This document shows positions 409 through 5,410 of a DNA stretch of 42,444 bases, piece by piece (position 1 is the first letter of the stretch; each line of letters opens with the position of its first letter). Position numbers and translations under genes: made by a program. The DNA lies in contig DYNH01000002.1 in assembly GCA_020721175.1 (NCBI GenBank), forward strand, positions 1-42,444, given 5' to 3'. The stretch is from Trichlorobacter lovleyi (GTDB taxonomy: Bacteria > Desulfobacterota > Desulfuromonadia > Geobacterales > Pseudopelobacteraceae). The notes under the pieces are model-generated. The model was not told the DNA's origin and did not search any database. It saw only the letters and a program-made list of their open reading frames with translations.

Positions 409-466
409 TGCTAACCAGCGCCAAGACTGGCCCAAATACCTGCCGGTCAGACTTTGAACGTTAAAC
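409..466 (+). mobile_element. Degenerate attC-like site (58 bp)
   Basis: TGCTAAC (409-415), inner stem GACTGGC/GCCGGTC (425-431/442-448), then GTTAAAC (460-466, fits GTTRRRY). Confidence 0.4.
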
Positions 467-543
467 CCGAAAAACAAAATTATTCTTTATTCTTATCTAC
501 CTTCGTGCTACTGAAAATCGGATAAATTGAACAGGAGTTTACA

Positions 544-960
544 GTGTCACTCCCTCATCATCCGGCTATAGGCACAATAGTAATTTGTGATTTTGCAGGA
601 AAAATACCAGAAATGGCCTCACGCCACCCTGCGGTTGTTATCACCCCTCAGTTGCCGGGTAGAAACAGGTTGTGTGCCGTAGTCCCCCTAAGTACCACCG
701 AACCTGACAATATGATGCCTTACCACTATAAATTGCACTTCAATCCACTACTGCCTCATCCGTATACTAACGAATACTCGTGGGTTAAAGCTGACATGAT
801 TACAACAGTTTCACTAGACCGTCTACACTTCCTTCGGAGAGGAAAATCCACAGGAACTAGGTAATACGATATCCGAGTAATAAGTGAATACGACTTGAGG
901 CAAATTCAAAAATGCATCCTACATGCACTCCAGCTTTCTTTGTTGACATCCCAATTTTAG
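544..960 (+). pseudogene. PemK/MazF-family (YifN-like) endoribonuclease toxin with an in-frame TAA at 862-864
   Basis: GTG start after AGGAG; motifs GTIVICDF..PEM, PAVVI, VVPLSTT, WVKADMI..VS..RL; the frame continues past TAA as YDIRVISEYDLRQIQKCILHALQLSLLTSQF* to TAG at 958-960, giving a 138-aa family-sized protein. Confidence 0.8.
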
Positions 961-972
961 AATTGGTATTAT
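943..972 (+). promoter_or_regulatory. Sigma70 promoter overlapping the toxin gene 3' end
   Basis: TTGACA 943-948, 18-bp spacer, extended -10 TG-g-TATTAT (964-972). Confidence 0.7.
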
Positions 973-977
973 AAAGA

Positions 978-1100
978 TGTCACCCGCTCTGCTTAGGTAT
1001 TCGGGATTAAGTCCGCTTCGGCGGCCGCCATACTTATAGAGATTGCAATCTGGTATGGTGTCATTTTGGGGCGACCTTATATTTAGTAAGGTCGCCCTTT
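978..1100 (+). ncRNA. Putative structured small RNA (candidate RNA antitoxin)
   Basis: Lies between the promoter and a terminator hairpin, no ORF; stems CCCG/CGGG (983-1005), CCGC-UUCG-GCGG (1013-1024), CGCCAUACU/GGUAUGGUG with apical AGAU-UGCA-AUCU (1026-1060). Confidence 0.6.
1069..1100 (+). terminator. Terminator-like hairpin ending the putative ncRNA
   Basis: 11-bp perfect stem GGGCGACCTTA/TAAGGTCGCCC (1069-1079/1087-1097) followed by TTT; the U-tract is short. Confidence 0.65.
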
Positions 1101-1117
1101 GCTATTAATGCACTCAG

Positions 1118-1242
1118 GTCTAACTGCTCAATCAACTCGGACTTGCTTACTTTGGTGGCATTAGTTGTTTTTTACATATCAGTTATCCTTTCCTGTCCGG
1201 TGGCTTCTTTTCGCAAGCCGGTTATCTCGTTACTCGTTATTG
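1118..1242 (+). mobile_element. attC-like integron cassette recombination site
   Basis: R'' GTCTAAC (1118-1124); AAC-t-CGG-a-CTTGC (1134-1146) pairs with GCAAGCCGGTT (1213-1223) leaving two extrahelical bases; R' GTT at 1229 or 1236 (CTCGTTA is duplicated). Confidence 0.6.
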
Positions 1243-1480: not shown

Positions 1481-2449
1481 CTAGCACAGAATGCTTCTTA
1501 CCAGCCAGACAGTATACCCGACATAGCAGGCCAGCAACACAGCCCCTTCAATACGGTTAATTCTGCCAGGCCCTTTAAAACCGTAACTGAAAAAAAACAA
1601 TGAGATTGTCAGCGTTGCCATTACCATCATATCACGCGAAAAAACAATCTGGTCAAAGGCAAACGGGTGAATAGTCCCGGCAATCCCTACCACTGCCAGG
1701 GTATTAAACATGTTTGATCCGATCACATTGCCCAGGGCAATGTCATGCTCGTTTTTTCTGACTGCAATGATGGAAGAGGCTACTTCCGGTAACGAGGTTC
1801 CCACGGCCACGATGGTCAGGCCGATGAGCAGATCGCTGATGCCCAGACGACGGGCGATATCCACTGCCCCCCAGACTAGGATACGGGAACTGGCAATCAG
1901 TAGCAACAGCCCCGCAAACAACCAGAACAGAGCCATTCCAAGGGGCATTGCATTAATCTCCAGTTCATCCTCAATCTCATCAGCCAGGGCATCATCACGT
2001 CGCTTCATGCCCTGCCAGATGGTCCAGCCCATCAAACCGAAAAAAACAGCCAGGTGCAACCAGCCATCAAGCCGTGTCAACTCTCCGTCATGCATAATCA
2101 CCAGGGCAAATACGGTCACTACTGACAATATCGGCAACTCTTTACGAAGCACCTGTGAATGCACAGCAATCGGGCTGATCAGAGCAGTTAATCCGAGGAT
2201 CAGCGCTATGTTGGTGATATTCGAGCCGTAGGCGTTACCCAGGGCAATGCCGGGATTTCCATTCCAAGAGGATAGAACAGACACCATCATCTCGGGGGCC
2301 GAGGTTCCAAAACCTACAATTACCATACCGATCATAAGCGATGGCATACCAAAATAGCGGGCAACTGCGGCGGCTCCGTCAACAAAACGGTCCGCGCTCC
2401 AGACAAGCAACGCCAATCCTGCTACCACGGCAATTAACGGCAATGTCAT
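1481..2449 (-). CDS. Calcium/sodium antiporter (CaCA family, YrbG-like)
   Basis: 322 aa, hydrophobic; alpha repeats GTSAPE...GNAYGSNITN and GTSLPE...GNVIGSNMFN. Confidence 0.92.
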   Translation of the reverse strand: MTLPLIAVVAGLALLVWSADRFVDGAAAVARYFGMPSLMIGMVIVGFGTSAPEMMVSVLSSWNGNPGIALGNAYGSNITNIALILGLTALISPIAVHSQVLRKELPILSVVTVFALVIMHDGELTRLDGWLHLAVFFGLMGWTIWQGMKRRDDALADEIEDELEINAMPLGMALFWLFAGLLLLIASSRILVWGAVDIARRLGISDLLIGLTIVAVGTSLPEVASSIIAVRKNEHDIALGNVIGSNMFNTLAVVGIAGTIHPFAFDQIVFSRDMMVMATLTISLFFFSYGFKGPGRINRIEGAVLLACYVGYTVWLVRSILC

Positions 2450-2760: not shown

Positions 2761-4338
2761 ATGGTGATAACGAACCAAATCAAATATCAGATGAAAAAGC
2801 TTAGAGATTATCTGGCCCTGAAAACCAAAATGGTTAATCATCAGGGGATCATCCATGAGGTAGCTTCCGGAGTTGAGCATTCCTGGGTCTATTACCTGAT
2901 GCTGGTAATGGCTGGCCTGATCGCCCTGCTGGGGCTGTTGACAAACAGCGTGGCGGTGGTGATCGGCGCCATGCTGATCTCGCCGCTGATGGGTCCGATC
3001 ATCTCATCTGGCCTGGCCCTGACCATCGGCGATCTTCCCCTGGCACGACGTGCCTTTCGTACCATTGCTGTCAGCGTCATACTGACCATCCTGCTCACCG
3101 CCTTTGTCACCTTCCTGTCGCCCTTGAAAGAACCAACGGCTGAGATTCTGGCCAGGGTACGGCCCAACATCTACGACCTGTTTGTAGCGATGCTGTCAGG
3201 CATTGTTGGAGCAGTGGCGCTCTGCACCAAGCGTAATTACCTGATTACCGCCACCGGAGTGGCAGTAGCCACTGCGGTTATTCCACCTTTAAGTGTAGCA
3301 GGCTATGGCCTGGGCACCGGTCAATTCATGCTGGGACTGGGCGGATTTCTGCTGTTTTTCACCAACTTTGTGGCCATTGTACTAACATCGGACATGATCT
3401 TTTTCATTATGGGGTTTCGCACCAGCCATGTCGAGAGCATCAAATATTCACAACGCACCCGTCTGCTGATCATAACTGCACTGTTACTGTTTATCTCCAT
3501 CCCGCTGGTTCACACCCTGGTGGTTGATATCAACAAGCTAAACACTAAAAAACAGATTGAAAAGGTATTGAAGAAACACCTGAACAGGGAAAACCTTTCT
3601 CGCATGACCGGATATTCGTTCAGGCAACTTAAGGGCAAGACCGATGTCAGGACAACGGTCAATACAGTGAAATACATTGCCAAACCTGCTGAACAAGGCA
3701 TTGAATCAGAATTGGAAGCCAGTCTTGGGAATAAGATTGACCTGCATCTTGAACAGGTTCTGGTGGCATCGGAACAACTTCCTGAACAGCATGAAGCTGT
3801 GCTGCTGCCAGAAAAGCCCAGAGAAACCGGAGCAGAGATCAGTGCCAGGGCCGCAAAACTGGTCGGCACGGCTGAACAGCTTCTCTCTGAAGCCTTATCC
3901 CCCTTTACGTTAACCAACACCCGACTGGCCTTTTCAAGCGGCAGTCAACCGCTTGAAGCATCAGCAACCCTTCGCCGTGACTGGCCTGTCAGCAGTGATG
4001 AATTACTGCTTCTGACCAGACAGCTTGAGCAGGCTCTGGAGCAGCCGTTACACCTGGAGATAAAGACCGTACCGCTAGTGCCACCAGTCAGCTTCAACAA
4101 AGACAACAGCCTGACCCCAGAAAGTATTGCAGATCTGGCAGTGATCAAACAGTTGCCAGGCAATCCGGACAATTACCGCTATCAACTGCTGGTGACTGGT
4201 CGTAACAATCGTCTGATGGTTACCAGGCTGCACAAGCATCTGACTGAAAATCTTCAGGTGCCGAAACAGGCCATTGAAATCAGGAACAGAAATACGAAAG
4301 TACCGACAGAGATTGTCCTGCGTGTGTTGAGACGATGA
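2761..4338 (+). CDS. DUF389 / TIGR00341-family membrane protein with a long C-terminal domain
   Basis: Motifs NSVAVVIGAMLISPLMGPI, EILARVRPN, GVAVATAVIPPLSV, LLFFTN; RBS AGGAGA at 2753-2758. Confidence 0.85.
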   Translation: MVITNQIKYQMKKLRDYLALKTKMVNHQGIIHEVASGVEHSWVYYLMLVMAGLIALLGLLTNSVAVVIGAMLISPLMGPIISSGLALTIGDLPLARRAFRTIAVSVILTILLTAFVTFLSPLKEPTAEILARVRPNIYDLFVAMLSGIVGAVALCTKRNYLITATGVAVATAVIPPLSVAGYGLGTGQFMLGLGGFLLFFTNFVAIVLTSDMIFFIMGFRTSHVESIKYSQRTRLLIITALLLFISIPLVHTLVVDINKLNTKKQIEKVLKKHLNRENLSRMTGYSFRQLKGKTDVRTTVNTVKYIAKPAEQGIESELEASLGNKIDLHLEQVLVASEQLPEQHEAVLLPEKPRETGAEISARAAKLVGTAEQLLSEALSPFTLTNTRLAFSSGSQPLEASATLRRDWPVSSDELLLLTRQLEQALEQPLHLEIKTVPLVPPVSFNKDNSLTPESIADLAVIKQLPGNPDNYRYQLLVTGRNNRLMVTRLHKHLTENLQVPKQAIEIRNRNTKVPTEIVLRVLRR

Positions 4339-4633: not shown

Positions 4634-5410
4634 ATGAAAGTGGGACTCATTGGATTTGGTAAAACCGGAAAAGCCGTTGCCTCAATTCTGCTGCAAAGTC
4701 AGGATACAAACCTGCAGTGGGTTGTACGTAGATCACACAGCCTTGAGCATCGTTCCGTACCTGAATTTCTCGGTATTGAGTCAAAGGAACCGGGGCTCAT
4801 CTATTCTAAAGAGGAATATTCTGCTACTGATCTGATCAGACGAATGCCCGTTGATGTCATTATTGATTTTTCTTCAGAAGACGGACTTGACTACTATGGA
4901 CAGGCTGCTGTTGAACAAGGTGTTGCCATTGTGAGCGCCATTTCTTCATACAACCCTGACACGATACAGATGCTTAAGCTATTTGGAGCTCAGACCAAAG
5001 TCCTCTGGTCACCCAATATTACCATTGGTATCAATTTTCTGATCATTGCTGCCAAAATCCTTAAAAAAATCGCTCCCTACACAGACATCGAAATTATTGA
5101 GGAGCATTTTAAGGCCAAACCTGAAATATCTGGCACAGCACGAAAGATTGCTCAGGCTCTTACCCTGCCTGAAGATGATATCAAGGTGGTCAGGGCCGGT
5201 GGTATAATCGGTGTACATGAAATTCTCTTTGGTTTCCCCTTTCAAACAGTTCGTTTGCGTCATGAATCAATTTCCCGTGAGGCTTTTGGTAATGGAGTGT
5301 TGTTTGCAGCACAACATCTTATCAATCAACCAGATGGACTTTACACAATGGAAGATCTGTTGATGCCATACTTTCAGTTAGACACCAAGCTGCCGTGCGT
5401 AAATAGCTAA
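4634..5410 (+). CDS. DapB-like NAD(P)-dependent reductase (4-hydroxy-tetrahydrodipicolinate reductase family), divergent
   Basis: GLIGFGKTG Rossmann motif, DVIIDFS, SPNITIGIN, EIIEEH...SGTA, RAGGIIGVH, HESISREAF. Confidence 0.8.
   Translation: MKVGLIGFGKTGKAVASILLQSQDTNLQWVVRRSHSLEHRSVPEFLGIESKEPGLIYSKEEYSATDLIRRMPVDVIIDFSSEDGLDYYGQAAVEQGVAIVSAISSYNPDTIQMLKLFGAQTKVLWSPNITIGINFLIIAAKILKKIAPYTDIEIIEEHFKAKPEISGTARKIAQALTLPEDDIKVVRAGGIIGVHEILFGFPFQTVRLRHESISREAFGNGVLFAAQHLINQPDGLYTMEDLLMPYFQLDTKLPCVNS

Follow-up and report, generated by a model that had tools for sequence, protein, structure and literature searches.

A conserved structured RNA accompanies a PemK/MazF-fold protein of the YifN type and probably acts as its antitoxin

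Few families of RNA antitoxins (type III) are known, and the kinship between ToxN and MazF has so far been without a close intermediate. A PemK/MazF-fold gene in the 42 444-nucleotide stretch of Trichlorobacter lovleyi DNA analysed here (contig DYNH01000002.1; hereafter the window) raises the question of what restrains such a protein: annotations place its family among the type II toxins, but its companion is a structured RNA not catalogued so far, and no protein antitoxin is conserved with it.

The gene, whose family is named 'YifN, PemK superfamily' in the sources, starts at GTG 544 and is interrupted by an in-frame stop codon (Table 1), beyond which read-through ends at the TAG of positions 958–960. 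The initial annotation of a PemK/MazF-like gene at this position was correct: the 138-codon read-through product matches Pfam PF02452 (E 8.5e-12), and intact relatives with 81–87% identity are 138 amino acids in length, one being of 160. The contig that covers this stretch in both public runs has the TAA as well, though the window itself may derive from those runs. The window copy is a pseudogene. Between positions 470 and 1230 the only ORFs of at least 25 codons are pemK and three of 28–31 codons inside it; there is thus no free-standing antitoxin ORF near the gene, as had been claimed.

Table 1. Features of the window and of related loci (positions refer to the window unless a locus is named).
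Feature	Position	Strand	Remarks
attC-like site, left boundary of probable integron cassette	411-466	+	CTAAC ... GTTAAAC, degenerate
Ribosome-binding site AGGAG	533-537	+	read from sequence, 5' of GTG 544
PemK/MazF-fold ribonuclease gene (predicted), pseudogene	544-960	+	138 codons, in-frame TAA 862-864
Sigma70-type promoter of RNA	943-972	+	-35 TTGACA 943-948, extended -10 TG-TATTAT 967-972
Conserved structured RNA body	978-1062	+	70.6 bits to covariance model; 5' end inferred from promoter
RNA P1	983-1005	+	helix with internal loop
RNA linker AUUAA	1006-1010	+	single-stranded
RNA P2	1011-1025	+	bulged U1012, cUUCGg tetraloop
RNA P3	1026-1060	+	internal loop; apical loop GAUUGCAA at 1041-1048
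Intrinsic terminator of RNA gene	1068-1100	+	11-bp perfect arm pair
Second attC-like site, right boundary of probable cassette	1119-1235	+	TCTAAC ... AACTCGG / CCGGTT ... GTTA
Na/Ca exchanger gene	1481-2449	-	ordinary neighbour
DUF389 protein gene	2761-4338	+	ordinary neighbour
DapB-like protein gene	4634-5410	+	ordinary neighbour
RNA copies upstream of pemK	L139:2839-2939, L140:2821-2921, L141:2846-2953, L142:2536-2634		model matches
Orphan RNAs in viral contigs	L224, L227, L230, L231, L242, L246, L250, L254, L256, L264, L266, L267, L270, L271
Promoter, short RNA and terminator behind yifN	L399:1400-1490	-	E. coli K-12, between yifN and ppiC

A protein antitoxin was likewise sought in the homologues, of which 183 distinct loci had enough flank. 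At 21 of these no same-strand ORF ends within 250 nt upstream of pemK. Among the 150 (of 162) upstream ORFs scanned, none encoded a MazE, AbrB or PemI protein, 17 encoded an XRE/cI-type HTH protein and three an RHH/Arc protein, the other 130 being unrelated or without a Pfam family; no protein antitoxin is therefore conserved in the homologues, in keeping with the initial proposal. Some of the HTH or RHH/Arc genes abut pemK, several within 5 nt, and their products could be protein antitoxins. It is chiefly the HTH group that leaves room for a type II interpretation, and several of its members are phage repressors with S24 domains.

Behind the toxin gene lies a short transcription unit. Its promoter, initially described as near-consensus, matches the consensus at 11 of 12 positions with an 18-nt spacer, and overlaps the end of pemK, the -35 lying inside the last codons. 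By itself this promoter is not above chance (three found versus 4.5 expected); the motif TTGAC recurs 57–82 nt 5' of the RNA linker in 158 of 173 distinct loci. The three-hairpin RNA of about 120 nt claimed for this stretch, cUUCGg hairpin included, is borne out by the fold of positions 978–1104 (-48.7 kcal/mol with the terminator included, z -4.39, 0/200 shuffles as low), and the stem length given for the terminator was also right. The window holds one covariance-model match and no tandem repeat between positions 495 and 1220. A scan of the window and 20 divergent loci against Rfam 15, including the pemK and abiF motifs named initially for such a scan, gave no match above the gathering threshold (best E 7.5). 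An extra U in P1 is common to the window and L143.

The RNA downstream of pemK is a real, conserved structured RNA family. With a profile of 87 proteins we gathered 222 homologue loci, many of them near-identical, and a covariance model trained on 96 of the 222 finds the RNA at 214 of them (78/80 GTDB, 62/62 viral and 74/80 metagenome loci). The eight loci without a match comprise five at contig edges, L220/L221 (counted as one event), in which pemK is C-terminally disrupted, and L068, in which the RNA was found 3 kb downstream of pemK. In the alignment of 97 RNA sequences 93% of helix cells are paired, compared with 33–43% in slid controls, and 20 of 23 base pairs show double (compensatory) changes, a figure reached by 0/500 shuffles in a control that ignores relatedness. 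The ten pairs of highest mutual information all belong to helices. Covariation, which the initial annotation had named as the check on the downstream structure, thus supports it. Within the helices G-U pairs outnumber A-C (138 versus 23), which favours the + strand as RNA.

In the consensus, P1 contains an internal loop and is followed by a YYAA linker; P2 bears a bulged U/A, and P3 combines an internal loop with an apical loop of the form GA-nnn-CAA. The invariant unpaired bases are the linker AA before P2 and the GA-nnn-CAA of P3. P2 is the variable region, an extendable stem rather than a single-stranded guide. Extended P2 loops have AAGGTCCGCCC in common at distant loci (L082, L085, L190, L194, L205, L207 and L059). 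No crossing pairs occur among the top mutual-information pairs, where invariant bases cannot covary, and the idea that the P1 internal loop pairs with the P3 apex in a pseudoknot is not supported. A -35-like hexamer stands at the equivalent position in 168/173 distinct loci (40/173 control windows), and a terminator-like hairpin follows the RNA in 164/173 (2/173 control stretches). L023 and L197 display a tRNA-like sequence directly 3' of the RNA in place of the terminator, while L111 (2418-2510) and L105 (217-312) hold second, diverged RNA copies with their own terminators, 0.5 and 2.7 kb upstream of pemK.

Recorded hosts include alpha-, beta- and gammaproteobacteria, Geobacteraceae, Chlorobiaceae, Planctomycetota and Nitrospirae. 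Outside the training set, the model matched two genomes of the window's genus (31 bits), a Vibrio phage (28 bits), N. gonorrhoeae (25.7 bits) and, weakly, E. coli p5217 (16.9 bits). The RNA was not found by the model in 150 other genomes of the phylum and the protein profile matched in 2/40 relatives, indicating a patchy, mobile module. Neither blastn of the RNA against INPHARED phages nor a search of E. coli genomes with an RNA variant gave a match. The distant homologues (~31–33% identity) on the E. coli IncF plasmid (L395), in X. citri (L396) and yifN had no significant model match, so the statement that no toxin occurs without this RNA is limited to the closer family. Protein and RNA identities correlate (rho 0.68), a value that we set aside as evidence because linkage alone yields such a correlation.

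The initial annotation presented an RNA downstream of the toxin as the architecture of the module. This is indeed the usual layout, on the same strand as pemK, but it does not define the module: the RNA is convergent to pemK in four loci (L048, L106, L107 and L394) and, with its terminator, precedes it in the classic type III order in four others (L139-L142, one clade, 4/62 viral loci). A broken pemK with an intact RNA was found in the window and in 10/222 loci, about six events (L022, L036/L046, L072, L074, L134 and the L083/L084/L198/L206 group). The reverse case, an intact close homologue lacking the RNA, was not found. The decayed toxin half and intact RNA of this genome are what is expected on disarming of a toxin-antitoxin pair.

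An RNA-first scan of viral contigs returned 49 hits, 47 of them true by the model (L229 and L244 were dropped as non-matches); pemK lies directly upstream in 33 and is absent within 1.5 kb in 14 (Table 1). These orphans, 13 of them distinct and one without an upstream flank, are possible antitoxin decoys or leftovers. Several follow phage repressor or integrase genes, the L256 orphan appears to retain a 3' stump of pemK, and a recognizable -35 is kept in only 6/14; some may be silent leftovers. In L254 (659-1369) and L266 the orphan lies opposite a convergent gene of the DUF3800 family (PF12686), which is known to have ncRNA partners of its own. A second, looser DNA pattern was rejected as an RNA finder, with pemK at 8/120 hits and most others due to chance.

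The predicted structure of the intact protein P0002 (87% identical to the window protein; pLDDT 91.6) has MazF as its best fold match with both Foldseek and VIA (Z 14.4, rmsd 2.1, 111 residues), compared with Z scores of 11.3 for Kid, 9.7 for CptN, 6.7 and 5.8 for ToxN and 6.0 for AbiQ. On this model the fold appears closer to type II MazF than to CptN or ToxN/AbiQ, and an extra basic beta-hairpin (residues 97–109) is predicted in family proteins of about 140 amino acids. Arg28 (95/99 aligned relatives) and Ser50 (99/99) coincide in the alignment with the HRP and PCT motifs of MazF, residues whose roles we take to be catalytic. The window and its three closest relatives have His28 and Ser26 in place of the family's Arg28 and Lys26 (window codons 26–28, positions 619-627). 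This sub-clade (3/99 aligned relatives) persists as intact genes and, judged from its substitutions, may be inactive as an RNase. Outside the catalytic pair, W80, K82, D84, R93, R106 and Y108 are nearly invariant and family-specific; together with the basic hairpin that they include, they are candidate RNA contacts. The family comprises 182 clusters at 50% identity with E<1e-30, 791 with E<1e-10 and 1262 at E 1e-3. NCBIfam gave only sub-threshold MazF matches, PADLOC no match for 6/6 family members, and a sequence search of the PDB only weak matches to E. coli MazF/ChpA (E ~0.009).

E. coli yifN (b3777) is a distant member of the family, matched by the profile in two pieces (E 1e-10 and 2e-7); it is frameshifted in K-12, with intact alleles in two other strains, and WP_000996685.1 is an intact natural allele. 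TTGACA stands at its stop codon, followed by a short RNA and then a terminator. RNA-seq and Northern blot have revealed an sRNA encoded behind yifN, on the strand of that gene, namely ecr3777(d+), 79 nt in length, between ppiC and yifO, which is listed there as also seen by Conway 2014 (PMC4681348). By eye, the probe printed beside ecr3777 mismatches the yifN stretch and that printed beside ecr2775 matches it exactly; the probe labels in the parts of the paper concerned appear to be shifted. All five named RNAs are given there as positive, and the passages on ecr3777 contain no link between the sRNA and control of a toxin (PMC4681348). Downstream of the plasmid homologue L395 (31% identical) there is a different short unit with promoter and terminator, and 56 nt of this unit match 4016/5426 E. 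coli genomes, in the stretch behind yifN; with the L395 protein as query no viral loci were found. The yifN locus thus has the same layout as the window, but its 79-nt RNA gave no match to the covariance model, and ecr3777 would on sequence grounds be a sister family of the window-type RNA. It supports layout and expression in a sister family, not function.

The attC-like site placed initially 5' of pemK is present as a motif at positions 411-466, ending 78 bp before the pemK start, and a second one, omitted at the time, lies at 1119-1235. Both are taken as attC-like on the basis of the consensus motif and arm pairing. Forced R-box closure of the left site gives -4.1 versus -6.1 kcal/mol for the free fold; the arms of the right site pair with extrahelical bases under forced closure, again less stably than the free fold. 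Pieces resembling 411-466 are present in other contigs, and the left arm of the right site recurs in many contigs that are unrelated, with a summed depth >1000 over positions 1113-1143. The unit of pemK and RNA, which holds no other free-standing ORF, is a probable integron gene cassette. An integron integrase search gave no TIGR02249 match over the cut-off in this 85%-complete assembly. The nearest relative, L143 (88%), is by inspection flanked by two different attC-like sites. Short repeated GGGGTCAG/CTGACCCC elements and a GGTTCCCACGC palindrome occur at positions 117-183, 1301-1398, 1391-1471 and 25-50 of the window, the GGGGTCAG/CTGACCCC elements lying on both sides of the cassette in inverted orientation; these resemble REP-type repeats.

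Among known systems, the module resembles ToxIN, AbiQ, CptIN and TenpIN in its MazF/Kid-related RNase fold, its RNA partner, the lack of a protein antitoxin and its carriage on plasmids and phages, ToxN being described as a MazF-related RNase inhibited by RNA (PMC3401426). Unlike in the ToxIN class, the RNA is a single non-repeated three-helix molecule, with no tandem array and no pseudoknot signal, and is usually a downstream transcription unit of its own; only L139-L142 have the RNA-terminator-toxin order of that class. One toxIN locus with a downstream toxI under its own promoter has already been noted (PMC3401426), a precedent for the downstream order. Pairing with a short structured RNA and presence in prophages are shared with AbiF-AbiFr/RCd22, where AbiFr neutralizes AbiF in cis and trans and where, in contrast to the PemK fold found here, AbiF is a HEPN nuclease with its RNA upstream (bioRxiv 10.1101/2025.04.15.648962, PMC13064643, PMC12737573); our loci had no Rfam abiF match.

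In NCBI records these proteins go by the name 'type II toxin-antitoxin system PemK/MazF family toxin', and the fold, PF02452 and the catalytic Arg and Thr/Ser positions are common to MazEF, PemIK and Kis-Kid. They differ from MazEF and PemIK in having no MazE, AbrB or PemI neighbour (0/150) and in their length of ~140 amino acids with the predicted extra hairpin. A survey of the MazF family discarded such singlet toxins (PMC3879964), and NGO0516-0517 of N. gonorrhoeae is described as an ordinary pemIK pair (PMC1931599), which is not tied here to L397. A structured RNA associated with one protein family is also the pattern of the Rfam pemK motif, which the window and the 20 divergent loci do not match, and of the DUF3800, drum and skipping-rope motifs (PMC5737381). 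DUF3800-I, drum and skipping-rope RNAs, of unknown function, can precede or follow the partner gene and have either orientation to it, and the DUF3800-type motifs, which likewise occur on both sides and strands, have 3' terminators (PMC5737381). The pseudo-ToxI of phage PhiTE, an antitoxin-like RNA carried without a toxin, is a precedent for orphan RNA decoys and a candidate parallel for the 14 viral copies (PMC3475682); unlike it, these are whole single-copy RNAs in prophage accessory slots and possibly leftovers. No earlier description of the module was found in open-access full text, while motif-survey supplements and subscription journals could hold the motif. The six (of eight) Fremin 2021 table files searched contain no PemK-dominated proteobacterial motif, and the Brewer 2021 supplement file and the 2026 gLM2 preprint nothing on it. 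The module is likely to be a toxin-antitoxin family of type III that is new and whose toxin has the MazF fold of type II systems.

Our main reading, with a probability of roughly 0.7, is that the RNA is an antitoxin made in excess from its own promoter and binding the PemK/MazF protein directly, as suggested by the fold kinship with ToxN, obligate pairing, free placement and one-way loss. The comparative results support the candidate RNA antitoxin of the initial annotation. The protein would be a toxic ribonuclease. Made constantly from a strong promoter of its own, the RNA would exceed the toxin without the read-through terminator of ToxIN; its invariant linker AA and P3 loop GA-nnn-CAA would contact the protein, and the two YAA-at-helix-end elements could fill both sites of a MazF-type dimer. 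A stop in host transcription, as on phage infection, or loss of the mobile element would let the RNA decay and free the RNase.

A ribonucleoprotein with some other job, its protein part binding or maturing the RNA and the complex having a third target, as in phage sensing or gene control, would suit the large invariant RNA core, the invariant W80, K82, D84, R93, R106 and Y108, the His28 sub-clade kept as intact genes and the variable placement, likewise a trait of DUF3800-I, drum and skipping-rope RNAs (PMC5737381). We consider it unlikely, however, as the catalytic Arg and Ser are retained (95/99 and 99/99), the RNA occurs without the protein and not the reverse, which fits a toxin-antitoxin pair, and the variable P2 is a stem and not a guide. 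It is quite improbable that the system is type II, its protein antitoxin being encoded upstream (HTH/RHH) or elsewhere and the RNA a regulatory passenger such as a 3'-end sRNA or stability element. The 20/150 upstream HTH or RHH/Arc genes, several within 5 nt, and a fold nearest type II MazF speak for this, but 130/150 upstream ORFs are unrelated or without a family, 21/183 loci have none, several HTH genes are the phage repressors noted above, the window cassette holds no other ORF, and a passenger is not expected at 214/222 loci in four placements.

Antisense control of type I, with the RNA pairing to pemK mRNA, would explain a small RNA with its own promoter beside a toxin and convergent to it in four loci, and duplex z falls below -2 in 4/40 loci. 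Over the 40 loci, however, mean duplex z against the own mRNA is -0.22, not above shuffles on average; the RNA mostly lies on the same strand without overlap, and what is conserved is structure and loop bases, making this reading very improbable. It is scarcely credible that the element acts as DNA, as a recombination or replication site with no RNA: its location on mobile elements would agree with this, and the RNA gene is known here from sequence, but a promoter (168/173) and a terminator (164/173) bracket the RNA, and G-U exceeds A-C by 138 to 23.

If the RNA is the directly binding antitoxin, the module would add to type III a family free of repeats and with a canonical MazF fold, account for many 'orphan' PemK genes and show what E. 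coli yifN and its orphan sRNA do. The RNA copies that stand alone in prophages are candidate counter-defences based on RNA. More tentatively, and at less than even odds, the entire YifN branch within the MazF/PemK superfamily, with yifN in about three quarters of E. coli genomes among its members, may have replaced its protein antitoxin by structured RNAs of at least two families, each a single RNA with its own transcription. Such a branch would still connect type II MazF with type III ToxN today, defending prophages and cassettes against phages and countered by RNA-only decoys of phages.
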